Position numbers and translations under genes: made by a program
Source: a virus
Lineage: Duplodnaviria > Caudoviricetes
DNA length: 34,338 bases
Reading direction: 5' to 3' (one strand)
Virus record (IMG/VR): IMGVR_UViG_3300020045_007366
Span: 1-34,338 of that record
Notes under the pieces: model-generated
What the model saw: only the letters and a program-made list of their open reading frames with translations
Database searches by the model: none
What the model was told of the DNA's origin: nothing
Shown here: one piece after another, positions 1-34,338 of the stretch
Position numbering within the stretch: position 1 is the stretch's first letter
Layout: every line of letters begins with the position of its first letter

Positions 1-519
1 GGTAAGAAGATTTATTTTGAGGATGAATATGTCAGGAGCGACATGACCATTAGCGAGTCATGCGGAATCATACTTAAAAAGAGCGGAGAGAAGAAGGCTG
101 ATTGGACGGTAGCTGACCCTTCCTTACATAAGAGGAATGCTGTGACTTTAGTGCCGGACATACTTGAGTTTAACAAGAACGGAGTTCCATGCGTAGCCGG
201 AGACAACAACCACAGAGGATACGACATTGTAAAGATGTTCCTTAAGAGAGGGCTTATAGTTGTTAACCCTAAATGCCGAATTTTAATTAAACAGTTGAAA
301 GAGTTGCAATGGACAGACAAGACGGACGACGATTGCACGGACGTTTTAAGATATATCTGTGTCAGAGTTCACGATTTGATATTCGGATGGAGAGATGTTC
401 CTATGGCTACAAAGGAAGATAACAAGATGATGGCAGGCACATTTAACCTTAACGATCCCTATTTATTCAAGAAGAAGGTTCATCCTAACGCAATCGTAGA
501 AGAAGTGAGGGCATATTGA
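1..519 (+). CDS. terL: Terminase large subunit, C-terminal nuclease domain (5'-truncated by window)
   Basis: Frame 1 is open from base 1. RNase H-like terminase motifs 'VADPS', 'NPKCRILIKQL' and 'DDDCTDVLRY'. Directly upstream of the portal. Confidence 0.85.
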   Translation, partial: GKKIYFEDEYVRSDMTISESCGIILKKSGEKKADWTVADPSLHKRNAVTLVPDILEFNKNGVPCVAGDNNHRGYDIVKMFLKRGLIVVNPKCRILIKQLKELQWTDKTDDDCTDVLRYICVRVHDLIFGWRDVPMATKEDNKMMAGTFNLNDPYLFKKKVHPNAIVEEVRAY

Positions 520-2417
520 TGGAACTTGCAGAAGATTTCAATTTTAACATAATCACTCCTCGGCCTTTCGTTCTGTCCGAACAGCCAAAACAGTATTTGG
601 AAGAGATGAAAGATGAGGCGATGGATAAGGTCATTACATGGGAGAAAAGGTCAAATAGCCTTTTTGAGAGTTATTTCAGGGGTGCTGATTCTTGGAGGAT
701 TAAACCTTATTCTGGTGCTAAGAAGAGCGATTCCAAGACATGGTTTGATTCCAAGAGTGGTGAGACGCATCGGGCTGTTGAGACTTTGGCGACGGTATGG
801 CATAGGATGTTGACGGCTTCTGACCCTTACTTGGAAGGTGTGGCTATGGGATTGAACCAGAACGGGATGCCAATAACCGAAGAAGAGATTTACGCTACTG
901 AAGGTGTTTTGTTGGAACAGCACAAGTATTCCCGCTACAAAAAGAAACTTTTAAATTTCCTAAGAAGTCTGTCTTTAATGGGGACAAGCATAGTTGAGGC
1001 TCCGTTTGTGAGTTTACCATACGGATTTGGACGAAAGACAATGGAATATACGGATTTTGTGCCGCGGTCAATGCTTTTAACAGGTTTTGACACGTCTGTT
1101 TTTGACATTATGGATTCGGACTTTATATTTACGATTGATTTTGTGAGTAAATGGATGTTAAGGAACCAAGCGTCCTTAAGCACAGACCATTGGGACATTG
1201 AGACTGTTGAGAAACATATATCGGAATCTAAAAATTCTCTTTTAAATGCTACCGGGCAGTCTTATAACAGGCTCCAACAGAGCCGGGCTCGGGCAGGATA
1301 CTATGATGAGGAATCAAATGTTTTTGAGAACTTAAATTATCATGGTCGTTTAGAGGTTAATCCTGTCATTGAGGCTTATGCTGAGTCTATCGGTCTTGAA
1401 GATGACCCTAAATATGTGGATTGGAGCATAGGGATATTGAATGGGATGGAAGTTGCGAAGTTTCACATGACACAATATGGGGATTGGCGGACAAGGTTTA
1501 AGATTGCAACCTATAAAGACTTTGAAAATGAGCCTAGAGGGTATGGAGTAGCCCAAATTGGGCGTAAACTTCAAAGAAATATGGACGTTTTGGAGTCTAT
1601 GACTGATGATAGGCTCATGTTTGACGTTTTGAACATGATGAAAATAGGTAAATACTCCGGTTATGACGCTAAACAGTTCGTTGCCGAACCTTTAAAGATG
1701 ATTGAACTTGAAGATGTGAACCAATTAGTTCCTTTAGTGGGAGATCCGAGAGTATTACAGCAGGCTTTAGTGATGATTGGGCTTAGGAGAGAGGATTTTA
1801 GGAACATTGTAGGCGCGCAGACGAATTTACAGGCTCAAAAGACCGATTCTTCAGCTACGGAAGCCGCCATAGCCCAGACCGAGGCCATTAGGTCTGCCGG
1901 AGTTCATGCAGAAATCATTGGTGAGACAATTAGAGACTTTTTTGAGATTCAGCACATAAATAACCTGAATTACCTCGATTCTCCTATCTGGGTAGCCATG
2001 ACAGGAAGCCAAAAACCCATGTTAGTTGATAAAAACAAACTTCCGTCAAATATTGGTTTCAATGTTAAGATTGTGACTGACAAAGACTTCAGACCTGAAC
2101 GCCAGAAGAACCTTTTACAGATTTTGCAGATTGTCACGAGTATCAGGAACTTTGTGCCTTCGTCAATTAACGCCATTAAACCTATCTTTGAAGAAATTTT
2201 CCGAAATTCGGGTTTAAATCCACGCCTTTTGTCGCAACCCATCCCCGTTATGGATCAAATTGAGAAGCAAATGAGCCAGATTCAGAACGGTGGAGGACTG
2301 GCTAACCAAGTTCAGGGTGAGGTAGCTGATGAAATGGCTGGATCGACACAGATGCAGTCGACTCCTGTCGGACTTGTCCCGACCTCAAACGTCCAAACTC
2401 CGGAGGTGTCCGCTTGA
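516..2417 (+). CDS. Portal protein (podovirus, P22-like)
   Basis: 633 aa after terL; GAGG RBS; portal-like 'PRGYGVAQ' and 'SATEAAI' segments and a Q-rich helical C-terminus. Start is TTG 516 or ATG 519. Confidence 0.85.
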   Translation: MMELAEDFNFNIITPRPFVLSEQPKQYLEEMKDEAMDKVITWEKRSNSLFESYFRGADSWRIKPYSGAKKSDSKTWFDSKSGETHRAVETLATVWHRMLTASDPYLEGVAMGLNQNGMPITEEEIYATEGVLLEQHKYSRYKKKLLNFLRSLSLMGTSIVEAPFVSLPYGFGRKTMEYTDFVPRSMLLTGFDTSVFDIMDSDFIFTIDFVSKWMLRNQASLSTDHWDIETVEKHISESKNSLLNATGQSYNRLQQSRARAGYYDEESNVFENLNYHGRLEVNPVIEAYAESIGLEDDPKYVDWSIGILNGMEVAKFHMTQYGDWRTRFKIATYKDFENEPRGYGVAQIGRKLQRNMDVLESMTDDRLMFDVLNMMKIGKYSGYDAKQFVAEPLKMIELEDVNQLVPLVGDPRVLQQALVMIGLRREDFRNIVGAQTNLQAQKTDSSATEAAIAQTEAIRSAGVHAEIIGETIRDFFEIQHINNLNYLDSPIWVAMTGSQKPMLVDKNKLPSNIGFNVKIVTDKDFRPERQKNLLQILQIVTSIRNFVPSSINAIKPIFEEIFRNSGLNPRLLSQPIPVMDQIEKQMSQIQNGGGLANQVQGEVADEMAGSTQMQSTPVGLVPTSNVQTPEVSA

Positions 2418-5903: not shown

Positions 5904-6761
5904 ATGGCTAATGAATTCGATAATACAGCATTAAACTCCACCGTTCGTGAACTTTGGGATGAACGTCTCGAAGACGCACGTTACGCGGAAATGGTTATTG
6001 GCTCTCGTGTGGCTAACAAGTCTGAAATCGCTAAAAAGAAAGGCGATATCATTCACGTTACCATCGACCAGGCTTATACCGTTGGAACCGTGTCGGCGGC
6101 TGGAGTGGTTGCGGCTCAGAATTATACCTTGTCTACTGTTGACATTACTCTTCAGAACTGGGAACAAATCACAATCGTTGAATTGGATCGGGCGAAAGCT
6201 CAGTCCTTCTGGTTGCCTGATTCCGTGTTTCCCAAAAATGTCGGTAAAGCCTTCGGCGCAAGGTATGACAGCGTTCTAGCCGGACAGCACGCAAGCATTA
6301 CTAGCTCGGTTGGGTCAACTACCAGCCCCGCGGACTTGGACAAGACTCTTGTTCAGGAAGCGATGCTTACTCTTGCTAACAGTAATGTTCCGTTGGAAGA
6401 TTTGAACTTGTTTGTTCATCCTACTGCTTACTGGCAGGGACTGTTCAATGAAGTTCAGCTTCAGGATGCGAACAAGACTGGTTCGGAGAAATCCGCACTA
6501 ATTACTGGCAAAGTAAACATGATTGCTGGTGTGCCTATCTATCAATCGACCAACATTGCATCGACTGGAAGCCCTGCGGTTCGCAAGAACCTCCTGCTTC
6601 ACAAGTCTTGCATGGCAATCGCTTGGCAGAAAGATGCGGAAATTAAGTCGGCAGACGGTCTGGCTGGACTGGTTTTGGGAACTATTTTCAACGCCCAGAG
6701 CCTTTACGGTTATAACGTCATCCGCGCCGATCACGGCGTGGTAATCAACTCGAAAGCATAA
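5904..6761 (+). CDS. Major capsid protein (HK97 fold, P22/T7-like)
   Basis: 'ELWDERL', 'KKGDIIHV', 'LANSNVP', 'FVHPTAY', 'IAGVPIYQSTNI' and 'LYGYNVIR' pattern typical of podovirus coat proteins; follows the scaffold. Confidence 0.9.
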   Translation: MANEFDNTALNSTVRELWDERLEDARYAEMVIGSRVANKSEIAKKKGDIIHVTIDQAYTVGTVSAAGVVAAQNYTLSTVDITLQNWEQITIVELDRAKAQSFWLPDSVFPKNVGKAFGARYDSVLAGQHASITSSVGSTTSPADLDKTLVQEAMLTLANSNVPLEDLNLFVHPTAYWQGLFNEVQLQDANKTGSEKSALITGKVNMIAGVPIYQSTNIASTGSPAVRKNLLLHKSCMAIAWQKDAEIKSADGLAGLVLGTIFNAQSLYGYNVIRADHGVVINSKA

Positions 6762-8003: not shown

Positions 8004-8720
8004 ATGACACTTGTAAATATCAGGAATAAAGTTAGGGACTACATTTCTCAAGAGGATACGTCTAACACAGACTTTTCCGATACGGAACTCAATAATTATA
8101 TAAATGAAGGTATCCGATATTTGGGTAAGTTGGTTAAAAAGCCTATCAAAAGAATCACGATTCAGGCGGTTCTTGATACGGCGACGTATTCTCTTGCAAG
8201 TGTAGCCCCTGATTTTATTCTTCCCACTACGGCTTATTTTGGGGATACCACTATCAACGGGGATGTACAAAAGCTGGAACTTATCCCCGAGGAATCTTTG
8301 GCTGAAATCAACCCTGCGTGGTTAGATGCAACTACAGGCAGTCAAGGAAGGCCAAGATACCTTGTGATGATTAACAGGACAACGGTTCTTGTTCATCCGC
8401 GACCCAATTCAGATCAGTCGGCCTCAGGAAAACTAATCCATTTGACGTTTGTCTACGAACCCACAGAAATAACAAGTGATTCCGCTGAGCCGGATTTGCC
8501 AATTTCATATCACGATTTGATTCCAAAATATGCCTATTCCGAGTGTCTTATCAGTAAACTCAAGGAAGATGCTAAGGGATACTCTATCAGGGGACTTATG
8601 GAGAAGGAAGCTAAAAAGATTGAGCCTCTAATCATTAAAGAGGCTAATTCGTTTGGATTTACTTGGGGACATTCAATTGATGTCAATGATGATTCAGGAT
8701 GGGGAGTTCGCGTTTCTTGA
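8004..8720 (+). CDS. Head-tail adaptor / tail tubular protein A-like
   Basis: 'MTL..IR..VR...FSD.ELN.YINEG', 'G.PRY', 'VHPRP' and 'PDLP..YHDLI..YA' are typical of podovirus adaptors. Confidence 0.8.
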   Translation: MTLVNIRNKVRDYISQEDTSNTDFSDTELNNYINEGIRYLGKLVKKPIKRITIQAVLDTATYSLASVAPDFILPTTAYFGDTTINGDVQKLELIPEESLAEINPAWLDATTGSQGRPRYLVMINRTTVLVHPRPNSDQSASGKLIHLTFVYEPTEITSDSAEPDLPISYHDLIPKYAYSECLISKLKEDAKGYSIRGLMEKEAKKIEPLIIKEANSFGFTWGHSIDVNDDSGWGVRVS

Positions 8721-23728: not shown

Positions 23729-24056
23729 CCTTAATCATTTTCAATTTCTGTTTTTCAGATAACTTTTCTTCAATGATATCCGTTCTCATTTCTCTAGGAG
23801 TAAACCTGTAAATCCTCCATCCCATGCGCGTTGCTTCATTGTATTTTCTCATGTCACGCAACATTCCAGATCCGCGACCATGTCCACCGCCACTCATCCA
23901 TGTTCCTCCTTCAATTTCAAGCGCAATCCCATGATTCCCAAAAATAGGCCACGCGAAATCAAACCGCCATTTCCGTGTCGGGTGAAATTTATACTCCACT
24001 TCTGGCTCCGGTAAGCCACGTAATTTCCAGAAATCTTTATCTGCCGTGAATTTCAT
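23676..24056 (-). CDS. PD-(D/E)xK nuclease, DUF559/Vsr-like (possible resolvase)
   Basis: 'EYKFHPTRKWRFDFAWP', 'LEIEGG' and 'DMRKYNEA...GWRIYRFT'. Confidence 0.85.
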   Translation of the reverse strand: MKFTADKDFWKLRGLPEPEVEYKFHPTRKWRFDFAWPIFGNHGIALEIEGGTWMSGGGHGRGSGMLRDMRKYNEATRMGWRIYRFTPREMRTDIIEEKLSEKQKLKMIKDGMARETVSGFLRSVLL

Positions 24057-24478
24057 TTGTCCTCGTTTAATCTTAATGTCGGCCTACCTAGCTCCCCACG
24101 CAATGCGGAGATAATCGCTTTTCTGCTTTTCTCCACAAGATCGTAAGAAAGAGTAGTGTAATAAGTCACATTTTCAATCCTGATATTCAACTGATTGATT
24201 TCCTCTTTCAATCGCTCATTCTCACTCTTGAGCATTGCGTTCTGAACGTCTTTGGCTGAGATATCGTCAGGTGACTTATCTTTTAAATCTTGCTCAAGAA
24301 CTTTTCTGGCATTTTTAACAGCAAGTCCTCCCATATGTGCGACTGCATCTGATGGAGATCGGTTCATTTCATCAGCATCCTCATCTATGCCCATCGGCAC
24401 ATTCATCCACATTTCTATTTGATATTCCAAAGCGTCTCTTAAAAGTTTACTCATTGCCAAATATTTGCAATTATGCAA
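24053..24478 (-). CDS. Coiled-coil hypothetical protein
   Basis: ORF within the operon; start uncertain. Confidence 0.55.
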   Translation of the reverse strand: MHNCKYLAMSKLLRDALEYQIEMWMNVPMGIDEDADEMNRSPSDAVAHMGGLAVKNARKVLEQDLKDKSPDDISAKDVQNAMLKSENERLKEEINQLNIRIENVTYYTTLSYDLVEKSRKAIISALRGELGRPTLRLNEDK

Positions 24479-24884: not shown

Positions 24885-25165
24885 TCAAAATTCACAATCA
24901 CTCTTTCGATTTCATTACTCGGAATCTCTCCACAACACAACCTAAGCTCCGCGACTGTCCAGTAAACTCTTATGGCCCTATGATTGGTCTTGTTTTTACT
25001 GTAAATAAATCCTTCTTTAGATTTCTCGCTTGGATTCATTCTTCTTTTTCAACCTCCATCTTTTATTACGAATAACTGTTCTAGCCTTCCTGTATTCAAT
25101 AGCATCTTTACGGCTTCGTTGATACTTGATTATGTCTATGGAGATTATATCGTTTAAGGCGTTCT

Positions 25166-28691: not shown

Positions 28692-28891
28692 GACTTTCCC
28701 TCCGCCTTGGCGATTAGTTTCGCTAACATCCTTTCGTGTCTGTTTTCAGTCCCGTGATTAGCTCCGCCATATCCCGTAGCTGTAAGGTGGGCTAAAACAA
28801 GTTTACATGCCCCCAAAAGCTCGGCGTTTATCTTTACAAGTTCCCCATAGTTATCGTGACCGTTGATTTCGTCGTATGTTAGTTTCCGCAT
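28688..28891 (-). CDS. Small phage protein ('ELL.A.K...IAKAEG' type)
   Basis: Motif shared with 32350-32610. Confidence 0.6.
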   Translation of the reverse strand: MRKLTYDEINGHDNYGELVKINAELLGACKLVLAHLTATGYGGANHGTENRHERMLAKLIAKAEGKS

Positions 28892-28998
28892 TAGATCACC
28901 TCCGCAAGTTCAATGATTCGATCATCAATTTCTTCCATGAGCAAGTTTCCAAGCCTCTCTAATTCTCCCTGATACCTCATTTCGTCGAATGAATCCAT
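28891..28998 (-). CDS. 35-aa first ORF of the recombination operon
   Basis: GGAGG RBS then ATG 28998. The longer track ORF merely reads through the structured leader. Confidence 0.65.
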   Translation of the reverse strand: MDSFDEMRYQGELERLGNLLMEEIDDRIIELAEVI

Positions 28999-29022
28999 GA
29001 CAAGACCTCCATTATAAGATAA

Positions 29023-29085
29023 GCACCCCCCTGCGCTTGTCATGGAGTGCCTTTCAGCACTATCGGTTAAGATCGCAGAGGGGGC
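29023..29085 (-). ncRNA. C4/CI-like antisense RNA
   Basis: GC-rich closing stem around two single-stranded boxes (UAACCGAU, CCAUGACAAG) separated by the hairpin AGUGC/GCACU. Complementary targets lie at 29140-29147, 29154-29163 and 28995-29004. Confidence 0.65.
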
Positions 29086-29122
29086 AATAAAATAGGCAGA
29101 CCTAGGATAACCCAAGTCTGCC
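29086..29122 (-). terminator. Leader hairpin / attenuator
   Basis: GGCAGACUUGGG-UUAU-CCUAGGUCUGCC followed by UAUUUUAUU. Confidence 0.55.
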
Positions 29123-29167
29123 GAAAACGCATTTCGATATAACCGATTGATTACCATGACAAGAATG

Positions 29168-29196
29168 ATTATAGCATACTTCTAATGATTTGTCAA
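29168..29196 (-). promoter_or_regulatory. Consensus sigma70 promoter
   Basis: TTGACA-17-TATAAT with an extended -10 TG. Confidence 0.85.
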
Positions 29197-29238
29197 CATT
29201 TATTATTATAATTCTTTACCGTCGGAATAATGATTTCA

Positions 29239-29881
29239 TTAAAAATTAAATACTTCCTGTTTTAGTCTTTGAACTGTTACGGCACAGTATTTTTCTTCTA
29301 TCTCACATCCTATAAATTTACGCCCTAAGTCTTTACAGGCCCTTGCTGTAGTTCCTGACCCCATAAACGGATCGCATATAGTCTCACCTTCATTACAGTC
29401 TATCAGGCGCATAATCAAATCAACAGGCTTTTCTGTGGGATGTAAATTATTGCCTGTTCTATCATTATGAATCACATCAGGAATTCTTTTAATAAATTTA
29501 TGTCCTGAATTTGCATAAAAACAAATCGCTTCCCATTGCCTGCCGTGTTCATGTTCAAGGTCGCCCATACTCCAATTATTCTTTACCCATGCCAAAACAC
29601 TCTTAGGGGGGGGGCATTTGAGATAGGTTATCCCATCGGCAAAAGAAATAGGCGCAATTCCTGGCCTTCTTTATGGCATCCAGAATCAAGTCAACAGGAA
29701 GAGCATCGTCCCCTATAATCTTCATGTGCTTTTCAGCTCTATGGTTACTCTGAAAATTCATGCCATAGGGAGGATCTGAAATGATTATGTCAACAGGCTC
29801 AAGGTGAGGTAAAATATCTCTGCAATCACCACAATAAATAGTAATTCCAGGCTCAGAATAATATGGTTTAGGCAGGCTCAT
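29239..29881 (-). pseudogene. N4/N6 DNA methyltransferase (beta class), frameshifted in a C9 tract
   Basis: Motif IV 'SDPPYG' in the upstream ORF; 'HPTEKP' and motif I 'DPFMGSGTT' in the downstream ORF. Removing one C at 29606-29614 joins them (...QMPPPKSVLAWVK...). Confidence 0.85.
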
Positions 29882-30175
29882 CCTTCCTCCTCGATGGACG
29901 GATTTCGACTTGAATAATTTCCAAATCATCCCGCAAGGAACTTACAGTATCAACAATGCCAAAAACATTTCCATTGTCAAAATCTTCTTTGGTCATATAT
30001 CCCATTAGTAATTTCCTACGCTTCAATTTAATCATGGTTTTTAAAATATATCGCTAATTGTATAACAAATAATACAATCATAATTATCAAGAATATTTTC
30101 CCAATCATCCTTCCTCCTCATACTCATTCCTCTCACAATCCGGCATCTGGCAATGGGACTGATTGCAGGGGCAGA

Positions 30176-30614: not shown

Positions 30615-30755
30615 TCATTTCTTTATAAATCTTTTGCAATCGCATTTTCTACAATCTTTATACTTGCGATAGAATGGATCAGAGGCATGACTATAATCAT
30701 GTTGAATATATTCATGACCACATTTACATAACTGCCATTTTTCTGGAATTTTCAT
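30615..30755 (-). CDS. 46-aa Cys/His-rich peptide (not in track)
   Basis: CKCGH....H...C..C.C..F; AGGAG RBS. Confidence 0.55.
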   Translation of the reverse strand: MKIPEKWQLCKCGHEYIQHDYSHASDPFYRKYKDCRKCDCKRFIKK

Positions 30756-30880
30756 CTCATCACGCTCCTATACTCTTTCGTCATCTTTGCGTCTAATTTT
30801 TTTATCATAAACCATCTAATAAATTCTTTCCTTGATAATCCTAACTTTTTTCTTAATCCTTCTAATTTATTATTTTTCAT
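30752..30880 (-). CDS. 42-aa basic peptide resembling a Cro/XRE HTH N-terminus (not in track)
   Basis: MKNNKLEGLRKKLGLSRKEF...; ATGA overlap with the next gene. Confidence 0.45.
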   Translation of the reverse strand: MKNNKLEGLRKKLGLSRKEFIRWFMIKKLDAKMTKEYRSVMR

Positions 30881-30919
30881 ACCCTTTAATAAATCCCTCT
30901 CAAAACTCACAATAACAAC

Positions 30920-31345
30920 TCTTTAAAACAAAAGAAGAAAAAACCCAGGGGATTGAGTATTTACTAACTTCTTCTTTATGGACGTTTACTATCTAACGTC
31001 AAGTCAAGATTTTTCAAGAATAATCCTGCTCGTATCTTCCTATACGCCGTAATTATTCGGATTCATGTATGGGTTTCTTTCCATACTGCGATCATGCGAC
31101 CGCTCACAATGTTGAAGTATCCCCTGGCGTCCCTTTTAAAGTAAACCGCTTAACTTGCCGCTTTATTTCCCATTGACGAAGCTCGGCAACGTCACTTACT
31201 CTACTGTCCAAAGCATAGGAGCAGACTTTGTTCTTAATCTCAAAAAATTATACTGGTAAAGACCCGCCTCCCAACCAGTCCAAGATTTCATTGTGCACAA
31301 TTACTTTCTTGATTTAATGGCATCCCAAGCTATGATGCCTACCCT
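30920..31345 (-). ncRNA. Candidate large structured non-coding RNA
   Basis: No ORF of 60 aa or more. At least nine stems, several of which need G-U pairs on the - strand. Long-range CCAGGGGAU/AUCCCCUGG pairing. Confidence 0.55.
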
Positions 31346-31366
31346 GTATGCAAAATGGAAAGATAA

Positions 31367-31732
31367 TTAGTCCTTCCAACTAAGCATACGCTTTTCCTGT
31401 CTTTGTGAAATTACGTTGTCCAGAAGTCCATAAACATTTTCTGCTATTCCCCCGTTTCCGCCATGATCTCTATTGAAAACCCATGACATAAGACCATGAG
31501 AAAGAGAATAACATTCTGAACTTGAAATTTTCTTTTTAACAATCGGGCAGTATATAAAACCATCCCATCTATACGGCCCAATTTCTTTTTTATGCCAAAA
31601 TATTTTCATTCCAGAGCCAGGATAAATTTTGTTGACATGATCCTGAGCCTCAGCCCTAGAGCGCGGCTTAGTTTTTAGGAATTTTAGTATTTTGTAATAC
31701 TCTTTATTTTCGTATTGGTTTAGTTTTTTCAT
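31367..31732 (-). CDS. 121-aa hypothetical protein, possibly winged-helix-like
   Basis: ATG 31732 directly after a structured leader; 'YYKILKFLKTKPRSRAE' resembles a wHTH start. Confidence 0.6.
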   Translation of the reverse strand: MKKLNQYENKEYYKILKFLKTKPRSRAEAQDHVNKIYPGSGMKIFWHKKEIGPYRWDGFIYCPIVKKKISSSECYSLSHGLMSWVFNRDHGGNGGIAENVYGLLDNVISQRQEKRMLSWKD

Positions 31733-31806
31733 ATAAATAAAAAAATAGTGAGCTTCTCCGAGGTAGGCGAAGAAACTCACTATTTCCTTTCGCCCTACCG
31801 CGAAAG
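31733..31806 (-). promoter_or_regulatory. Two-hairpin leader with complementary loops, ending in a terminator-like U-tract
   Basis: UUUCGC-GGUAGG-GCGAAA, then AAAUAGUGAGUUUCU-(CCUACC in loop)-AGAAGCUCACUAUUU-UUUU. Confidence 0.6.
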
Positions 31807-31846
31807 ACCGTCATCTACAAGATATTAAAGATCAAACCTGTTGAGA

Positions 31847-31876
31847 AGTATATCAAAACTTTGGGAATCATGTCAA
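31847..31876 (-). promoter_or_regulatory. Sigma70 promoter
   Basis: TTGACA-18-TATACT with TG upstream of the -10. Confidence 0.7.
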
Positions 31877-31986
31877 GCATTATTTTAGGATTGAGACTAG
31901 CAAGGTTTTGATTTTCATTTTATAGACGCTCCTCATTTGGGTAATGATATATTCCTATCATATTGAGGATATTCCTGTCAAGCGAT

Positions 31987-32145
31987 TTAAAAATATTTAT
32001 CATAGAAGTCACAGATATATTTTTCAAAGATAGGCTTCGTCACTTCCATGCCCTCTCCGTCGTGTCTTGTAATGTGAACTGTCCCATCTTTCCATTGAAC
32101 GATATTGAAGTCTGTCATCTTGATAGTTCCTAAAGTTAATTTCAT
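31987..32145 (-). CDS. 52-aa hypothetical protein (not in track)
   Basis: MKLTLGTIK...FYDKYF; packed after 32147. Confidence 0.55.
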   Translation of the reverse strand: MKLTLGTIKMTDFNIVQWKDGTVHITRHDGEGMEVTKPIFEKYICDFYDKYF

Positions 32146-32613: not shown

Positions 32614-33063
32614 TTATTTACCTCTCTTTATATTTTGCTCGTGCAGGCTCAGGATGTATTGCGTCATGTTCTTCATGGATTTATATGCGCTCTCTTTGAT
32701 TGACTGGTATGTTTTCTTTGTCATCCTTACCACAACGAATTTTCGCTTAGGAACTCTATTTGGAAACTCTCTTCTTTTAACATTTTCAGATAATTCTATA
32801 AATCTACAGTTTTGAATTTCATAGTTACCATTAGAGTCAATCCTGTCAATGGAAGGACGTTTTAACGATGCCCCATTATCTCTATGCCATAAAAATTCTA
32901 GTTCATCCATTTCAATTAGACATTTGACCCCTTTTCCGCCATAGTAAGCATATCCACATGATTTAATTGAATTGCATCTATTTTTCATACTACTAAGCCT
33001 AGGCTGTAGAAAGGATCGAATCTTTCTTTTCCAGTTTGTTTTTTGCTTATCTGTTAGTGTCAT
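32614..33063 (-). CDS. HNH-like endonuclease fused to a C-terminal ribbon-helix-helix-like domain
   Basis: 'MKNRC...YYGGKGV', 'SIDRIDSNGNYEIQNCRFI..SEN'; C-terminus 'KRKFVVVRMTKKTYQSIKESA...NMTQYI'. Start ATG 33063 via ATGA overlap. Confidence 0.75.
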   Translation of the reverse strand: MTLTDKQKTNWKRKIRSFLQPRLSSMKNRCNSIKSCGYAYYGGKGVKCLIEMDELEFLWHRDNGASLKRPSIDRIDSNGNYEIQNCRFIELSENVKRREFPNRVPKRKFVVVRMTKKTYQSIKESAYKSMKNMTQYILSLHEQNIKRGK

Positions 33064-33203
33064 TTGATTTCTCTTTTGGCTGTAACAGTTCTCTTCATTT
33101 TGTTGAAATAATTTAACTGAGTTTGGGCTGTCCGGCACGGCTCTGAACAGTAGAACTTCCAGCCTTTGGGAACTGGTGAATTGCAGAATTTGCATTTTTT
33201 CAT
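33060..33203 (-). CDS. 47-aa Zn-finger peptide (not in track)
   Basis: MKKCKFC...FYCSEPC; AAGGAG RBS; first gene after the promoter. Confidence 0.7.
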   Translation of the reverse strand: MKKCKFCNSPVPKGWKFYCSEPCRTAQTQLNYFNKMKRTVTAKREIK

Positions 33204-33313: not shown

Positions 33314-33425
33314 AATAATTGCCTACTTGACAAAATTCAAGACTTCATGTATATTTTAGCCATGGATCATTTTTTCCCTCAGAATGATATAACAGTTTCC
33401 TCACTCAAATTTAATAATCTAAAAT
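33314..33425 (+). repeat. Left arm of the 112-bp perfect inverted repeat
   Basis: Exact reverse complement of 34227-34338. Confidence 0.95.
33327..33355 (+). promoter_or_regulatory. Rightward promoter (inside the inverted repeat, mirrored near the window end)
   Basis: TTGACA-17-TATATT, with ATG 6 nt downstream. Confidence 0.7.
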
Positions 33426-33977: not shown

Positions 33978-34241
33978 ATGATTGAAGAACATGGCGCTAT
34001 TGATGAAAAGATTATTCCTATGACTGATACTCAAAGCTTACACGTTTCAATTAAATCATCAAATGGTAAGCTATTCCTGGACCTTCGTAAGTGGTTTAAA
34101 TATCAGAATATGGATTATCCTATAGCATCAAAGAAGGGAATTATGTTAGATTTTGATAATTGGCATCACATTATCCCGATAGTTAATGATTACATATCTA
34201 AATATGAAAATGTCGATAAATTAAGCATTTTAGATTATTAA
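33978..34241 (+). CDS. PC4/YdbC-family ssDNA-binding protein
   Basis: 'LHVSI...NGKLFLDLRKWF...KKGIML...W'; TATAAT 5 nt before the ATG (leaderless). Confidence 0.85.
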   Translation: MIEEHGAIDEKIIPMTDTQSLHVSIKSSNGKLFLDLRKWFKYQNMDYPIASKKGIMLDFDNWHHIIPIVNDYISKYENVDKLSILDY

Positions 34242-34338
34242 ATTTGAGTGAGGAAACTGTTATATCATTCTGAGGGAAAAAATGATCCATGGCTAAAATA
34301 TACATGAAGTCTTGAATTTTGTCAAGTAGGCAATTATT
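34227..34338 (-). repeat. Right arm of the inverted repeat (runs to window end)
   Basis: Exact reverse complement of 33314-33425. Confidence 0.95.

Follow-up and report, generated by a model that had tools for sequence, protein, structure and literature searches.

A covarying RNA motif, probably undescribed, tied to an orphan protein gene in the early arm of a phage

Directly behind a gene for a 121-aa protein in a phage genome lies a conserved structured motif (motif A) that is real and probably an undescribed RNA motif, one that goes with an uncharacterised protein family and is smaller than the ~430-nt RNA or RNA-primed origin proposed for this site in a preliminary description. It recurs, with compensating changes in its stems, behind the same gene in a second locus, so the RNA likely pairs functionally with the protein. 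Motif A very likely works as an RNA on the minus strand, and our preferred reading, to which we would give a probability of roughly 0.4, is that it would bind the protein directly and thereby restrain or scaffold it.

The stretch of DNA analysed here—the window, 34,338 nt from the IMG/VR record IMGVR_UViG_3300020045_007366—is linear, estimated to be 88% complete as a virus record, and looks like a podovirus-type phage (Table 1). Its early arm, on the minus strand, encodes ERF, YqaJ, a split DNA methylase, YopX and an HNH protein. The HNH-like protein (32614-33195, minus strand) has a weak C-terminal match that is NikA-like (ribbon-helix-helix), and a 42-aa ORF (30752-30880, minus strand, ATG at 30880) looks by eye like an HTH regulator, with weak regulator matches in PHROGs (E 0.15-0.17). 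A perfect 112-bp inverted repeat (33314-33425 and 34227-34338), each arm of which carries a promoter-like site (TTGACA-17-TATATT), flanks 801 nt at the contig end and is either an invertible segment or an assembly artefact.

Table 1. Positions of the principal features in the window (z, folding energy relative to shuffled sequences).
Feature	Position	Strand	Details
Portal-like ORF	516-2417		
Major head protein	5904-6761		
SU10-type adaptor	8004-8720		
DNA methyltransferase split over two ORFs	29239-29929	−	29603-29929 and 29239-29595; each matches phrog_67
Region B+C, unshared	30920-31241	−	z −3.42; 0/120 shuffles
Domain C, 183-nt multibranch fold	30945-31127	−	z −5.26; closed by 9-bp long-range pair
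Motif A, conserved 102-nt core	31244-31345	−	shared with L090:495-596
Possible internal promoter	31247-31274	−	TTGGGA-16-TATAAT, 10/12; second transcript would start near 31240
P4/P5 arm	31253-31278	−	invariant G-rich loop GAGGCGGGU (31270-31262); 4/8 pairs change on both sides
P2/P3 arm	31280-31312	−	6-bp stem; invariant AAGUA/GAAA internal loop
P1 hairpin	31319-31339	−	loop ends in invariant CUUGG; 4/5 shared pairs change on both sides
P0 hairpin	31356-31378	−	8 bp; stop codon in 7-nt loop
121-aa basic orphan protein gene	31367-31732	−	pI 9.6, net +10; start MKKLNQ fits homologs
Leader	31741-31806	−	two abutting hairpins, complementary loops GGUAGG/CCUACCU; z −4.45
Sigma-70-type promoter candidate heading the cassette	31847-31876	−	TTGACA-18-TATACT, 11/12, extended TG

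The gap measures 486 nt, from the upstream stop at 31367 to the following ATG at 30880, which bears out the preliminary description's remark that this is the largest gene-free gap of the early arm: it heads the 37 gaps between the 38 listed ORFs, the second being 254 nt. The decayed gene which that description had allowed for is not apparent, there being no long reading frame in the gap (longest stop-free stretch 47 codons on the minus strand, 58 on the plus), and none of the repeat families listed falls within it. Against shuffled sequences the element folds modestly better on the minus strand (z −2.71; 1/100 equally good) and on the plus strand (z −1.99; 4/100), with a strength that is uneven along the gap: z −1.55 for 31244-31345, +0.05 for 31150-31243 and −5.23 for 30940-31130. 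Its best sliding 150-nt window (z −2.57) is not outstanding, ranking 7th among 125 in the early arm. Further strong-folding 150-nt windows at 25000-25149 and 24000-24249 on the minus strand (z −5.4, −3.8 and −3.2) fall within called small ORFs.

The stems named in the preliminary description are there: all 14 strand pairs tested were found on the minus strand where it had placed them, among them a long-range 9-bp pair (31127-31119 with 30953-30945) with an ensemble probability of 0.99. Pairing is predicted at high probability for GGCAUC (0.90), UCAAGA (0.86), ACUGGU (0.92), GCGGUC (1.0), GUAUGG (1.0), CGUAU (0.91) and GACGUU (0.97), and at low probability for UCUGCU (0.31), UGACG/CGUCA (0.36) and GAAUAAU (0.05). 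The letters of a proposed pseudoknot are likewise present, but a simpler arrangement competes with it, in which UGAC/GUUA stacked on UUGCCG/CGGCAA forms one long hairpin. Similarly, the long-range pair does cross the AAAGAAGAA/UUCUUCUUU stem, as claimed, but the two have no bases in common; the stem's pair probability of 0.0 arises because the prediction allows nested folds only.

Comparative evidence came from the upstream gene. Its protein has eight relatives (P0002-P0009, 41-64% identity), making nine sequences among about 15 billion, and a metagenome scan with the relatives' alignment recovered one locus, L090, with a protein 47% identical. Flanking DNA was readable for this one of the eight relatives; the link between gene and motif thus stands at two of two loci seen, with seven unseen. 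Directly behind the homologous gene, L090 aligns with motif A without gaps at 60/102 identical positions, against a background of 25 ± 4.4 (best 45) over both strands of the window. Identity is highest outside the stems, at 44/60 unpaired positions (73%) against 16/42 paired ones (38%), and the invariant blocks are CUUGG, UUAAAUC, AAGUA, UGAAA, GGACU, GAGGCGGGU and AUAAUU.

The shared structure comprises 21 pairs in four helices, every one of which is kept in both copies, while 12 are changed on both sides; none of 500 shuffles scored as high and slid controls were 31-45% paired, figures to be read in the light of a structure drawn with both sequences in view and of a sample of two, which places it outside phylogeny-aware testing. 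Because the structure was drawn in this way, we also compared a prediction made from the window only: 20 of its 25 pairs hold in L090, a level that randomising the variable columns attained in 335 of 200,000 trials. The covariation on which the preliminary description had made its element depend was found for motif A, between two sequences. Taken alone, motif A folds no better than shuffles in either copy (z −1.55 on the minus strand of the window, −0.64 in L090), and the plus strand of the window scores better than the minus (z −3.01).

P0 keeps its register in L090, with 7/8 pairs and two two-sided changes (chance about 0.007), a conservation explained in part by the coding function of its 5′ strand (W-K/G-x-stop); the stop-to-P1 spacing is 27 nt in one locus and 30 nt in the other. 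P1 is followed by the invariant UUAAAUC (31317-31311) and an A-rich linker, and P4/P5 by the invariant AUAAUU (31251-31246). The AGUA/GAA internal loop of the P2/P3 arm is what we take to be a loop-E/sarcin-ricin-like motif. The tip of this arm is a self-complementary hexamer in both copies, GUGCAC (31298-31293) in the window and CUAUAG in L090, and the 12-nt tip has a predicted duplex energy of −15.1 and −7.0 kcal/mol in the two, a feature noticed after the fact. Two G-U pairs are invariant and two A-U/G-C pairs change to G-U; on the strength of these and of the AGUA/GAA loop, we read motif A as a minus-strand RNA. The rest of the early arm contains no perfect complement of motif A of at least 11 nt, and the two leaders share no antisense target for it.

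Both loci seen have the same layout, with a promoter, an orphan gene and the covarying motif fixed at the 3′ end of that gene. In the window the leader's second hairpin has 20 pairs, is terminator-like and ends 9 nt before an ATG that lacks an evident SD; the complementary loops of the two leader hairpins could form a kissing loop or an antiterminator switch, and the leader could serve as an attenuator or as a small RNA of ~100 nt. In L090 the homologous gene appears leaderless (L090:85-121): its promoter (TTGACA-17-TATAGT) ends 7 nt before the ATG, and a similar pair of hairpins, one short and one long, lies upstream of the promoter.

All eight full-length members tested of the protein family are basic (pI 9.4-10.2). 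Neither Pfam, PHROGs, PADLOC nor the PDB sequence families match it, and no known RNA-binding or nuclease family was found for the 121-aa protein. A fairly confident structure model from eight sequences (pLDDT 83) has no significant fold match; its nearest folds are 2oso (Z 4.8, rmsd 4.3, 85 aligned), BcsD (Z 3.7-3.8) and TRAPP (Z 3.0), all of which fall below the noise level of about 8. Foldseek gave nothing at E up to 0.001, and the ESM Atlas no usable match for two proteins. Nor was the protein found by tblastn against phages and plasmids, by protein-based locus scans of viral contigs and GTDB genomes (with patterns that would miss P0007 in GTDB), or in 401 + 401 sampled genomes from two arbitrarily chosen phyla and four single genomes.

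The RNA, too, matches no known family. The preliminary description had suggested searching Rfam and looking for homologues with nhmmer: Rfam 15 gave no match in the window at the gathering score, and of 88 viral loci returned by a pseudoknot pattern scan none was homologous by nhmmer. A permissive Rfam search of 30700-32000 yielded 11 weak matches (best E 0.19), none on motif A, and a search of L090 none at E up to 10; ARAGORN called no genes, in keeping with the absence of tRNA and tmRNA reported before. Resemblances to pistol and tmRNA seen by eye were dropped for want of model support. Five pattern scans for motif A returned 3, 4, 5 and 20 viral and 52 genome loci, and 0/84 were homologous by covariance model, although such scans require exact motifs and would miss diverged copies; the training pair scored 118-121 bits with this model and the next-best sequence 17.5 bits (E 0.054). 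The three best near-misses, which overlap long open frames, were rejected. DNA similarity searches of phages and plasmids gave short chance matches or none, with no plasmid match beyond 9% of the query, and neither the window nor L090 holds a second copy of motif A.

Three relatives identified through the phage head protein (G001-G003, 68% identity) carry neither the 121-aa protein nor motif A, although the complete one, G003, has the structural arm and ERF/YqaJ in common with the window; the cassette is rare and accessory. An intergenic stretch of G003 (L166:10155-10352) also folds strongly (z −4.8, 0/30 shuffles) and is unrelated to the gap element. Our literature search found no prior description, but the supplements of PMC10690425 were covered in part and may hold a prior prediction.

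These observations support the proposal of the preliminary description that a non-coding RNA acts with the upstream 121-aa protein as regards the 5′ part of its element, a covarying motif behind a homologous gene in L090, and not as regards the rest of the gap. In the reading we prefer, a single early transcript would bear both gene and RNA; the RNA would comprise P0, which spans the stop codon, then P1, the loop-E arm and the arm bearing GAGGCGGGU, and its invariant loops would supply both a protein-binding surface and a tertiary core. Two RNAs may pair through the palindromic tip. The RNA might then check the protein in the fashion of an RNA antitoxin or a regulatory scaffold, in a cassette that would move between phages as a moron-like unit, with the ~320 nt downstream possibly a second RNA under its own promoter. 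A bolder and rather unlikely extension would be an undescribed compact phage ribonucleoprotein, made of the 121-aa protein and a loop-E RNA of ~130 nt, which would dimerise by its palindromic tip and engage a host target with either its invariant G-rich loop or the variable flank on its 3′ side; the other possibility would be a ribozyme of a new class. In this phage an unrelated ~320-nt RNA would come next.

Adjacency would also fit a cis-acting element merely travelling with the gene, and motif A might control transcription between the first early gene and the operon, as an N/nut- or put-like antiterminator or a ligand switch. In both loci the gene comes first behind a consensus promoter, and its product is small and basic; P0 scores terminator-like in the window; the RBS and ATG of the next L090 gene lie within 18 nt of the motif; and in the extended L090 region the single-sequence MFE replaces P0 and P1 by an alternative fold. 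We nevertheless think this unlikely: the motif comes after, not before, the terminator-like P0 and the leader hairpins, the downstream contexts are wholly different (a gene in L090, 320 nt of structure in the window), and no riboswitch or leader in Rfam matches.

An improbable alternative is that motif A trims the early transcript as a ribozyme, self-cleaving or processing, of a class not yet described. Motif A has no indels over 102 nt in spite of 62% divergence in its stems and 73% identity in its loops, a combination that suggests a rigid core; it is intergenic in a phage, and its hairpin followed by an A-rich linker recalls, to our eye, the pistol ribozyme. Against this, Rfam searches reaching to E 10 gave no match to any known small self-cleaving ribozyme (pistol, twister, hammerhead, HDV, hatchet), no 6-bp partner was found for the P1 loop, and a ribozyme has no need to stay beside one gene family.

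More doubtful still is a single large RNA spanning the full ~430 nt, with a short form of it in L090. The gap, the stems and the modest folding described for such an element stand, with the region gene-free throughout and z-scores of −2.7 for the whole and −5.3 for domain C. Its unity does not, as only 31378-31244, some 135 nt, recurs elsewhere: the next ORF of L090 begins at 614, 18 nt past the motif, which leaves the remaining ~320 nt outside the shared unit and one large RNA unsupported. Predicted folds moreover contain no pairing between motif A and B+C, and B+C is predicted to be closed by its own ends (31234-31226 with 30933-30925), just after the promoter-like site, the equivalent of which was not called in L090. 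No relative of B+C was found, and nothing in L090 or G003 matches it. The gap is thus probably not one 430-nt RNA, and the ~320 nt downstream are probably an element separate from motif A, possibly with its own promoter; we suggest, tentatively, that they form a second RNA. Domain C is the strongly folding part, no shuffle of 300 being as good on the minus strand (plus strand z −3.61, 0/150), while region B alone has z +0.05. A hairpin in domain C (31020-31055, minus strand) resembles SRP helix 8 by eye, with no support from Rfam; likenesses of B and C to SRP RNA and RNase P RNA were dropped, those families not being among the 11 weak Rfam matches.

A ColE1-like primer or origin, also put forward in the preliminary description, gained no positive support, and we hold it very improbable that the element acts as DNA or primer, be it an RNA-primed origin or a single-strand initiation site. 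Three covarying hairpins would be compatible with a single-stranded DNA signal, and no replication initiator, primase or polymerase family appears among the 69 ORFs; the record, however, is only 88% complete, so missing replication genes mean little. The complete relative G003 manages without gene and motif, the loop-E-like motif, like the wobble pairs, speaks for RNA, local GC skew is negative throughout the gap region without a switch, and no RNAI-type family in Rfam matches. Chance folding or a decayed gene, with which the element's unremarkable sliding-window z and the score of region B would agree, is extremely unlikely overall, since covariation with L090 excludes chance for motif A and no long reading frame exists; it may apply to region B.

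A separate site in the early arm recalls another known system. At 28960-29200 (minus strand) a consensus promoter precedes strong hairpins, with the best 150-nt window of the early arm (z −6.8); two copies of CUUGUCAUGG (29163 and 29004) flank its complement CCAUGACAAG (29045), which lies at the tip of a hairpin. This is the seqA/CI/seqC layout of P4-type RNA immunity (PMC4825925). The site has no Rfam match, and a called ORF (28891-29157) spans it.

Time and again, structured RNAs that accompany genes of mobile elements have proved to be antitoxins, guides or ribozymes. In the present case neither partner belongs to a recognisable family and each is small enough for synthesis, and two natural versions with compensating stems offer a ready test of cross-specificity; with nine protein sequences and two RNA copies seen, their reach may be narrow. 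In lambda N/nut and HK022 put, a small basic first early gene goes with a structured RNA near the head of the early operon, and the cassette has such a gene and such an RNA; it differs in having no sequence or family match and an RNA placed behind the gene and exceeding nut in size. Several members of the V4R/H-NOX/TRAPP/BcsD fold group are among the protein's structural neighbours, at a Z (up to 4.8) short of the noise level and with no sequence match.

Work on AbiF (10.1101/2025.04.15.648962) describes a phage-borne gene with an adjacent, tied non-coding RNA that neutralises the protein by direct binding. The cassette shares with AbiF and type III toxin-antitoxin systems a gene with an adjacent tied RNA and the direct-binding logic proposed here. 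Unlike them, the members of our protein alignment belong to no Abi_2/HEPN, ToxN, CptN or TenpN family (Pfam, PHROGs, PADLOC), and the RNA is a single, unrepeated three-arm motif. TnpB reRNA and RAGATH-18 (10.64898/2026.09.09.750255, PMC11061315) are structured RNAs that begin at or inside the 3′ end of a protein gene and are followed by variable sequence; the RNA of the cassette has a similar placement, likewise with variable sequence after it. In contrast to TnpB/IscB OMEGA systems, the 121-aa protein has no RuvC or HNH match in Pfam or among PDB sequences, and fold searches, not decisive by themselves, list none; transposase and IS ends were not seen, and no target of the 3′ flank tested positive. 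OLE, ARRPOF, ROOL, GOLLD, manA and EGFOA commonly oligomerise by kissing-loop or palindromic pairing (PMC12990946, 10.64898/2026.07.01.735769). Motif A differs from these self-associating RNAs in having no Rfam match, in being much shorter and in that its dimerisation is predicted, but it resembles them in the self-complementary tip that both of its copies possess.
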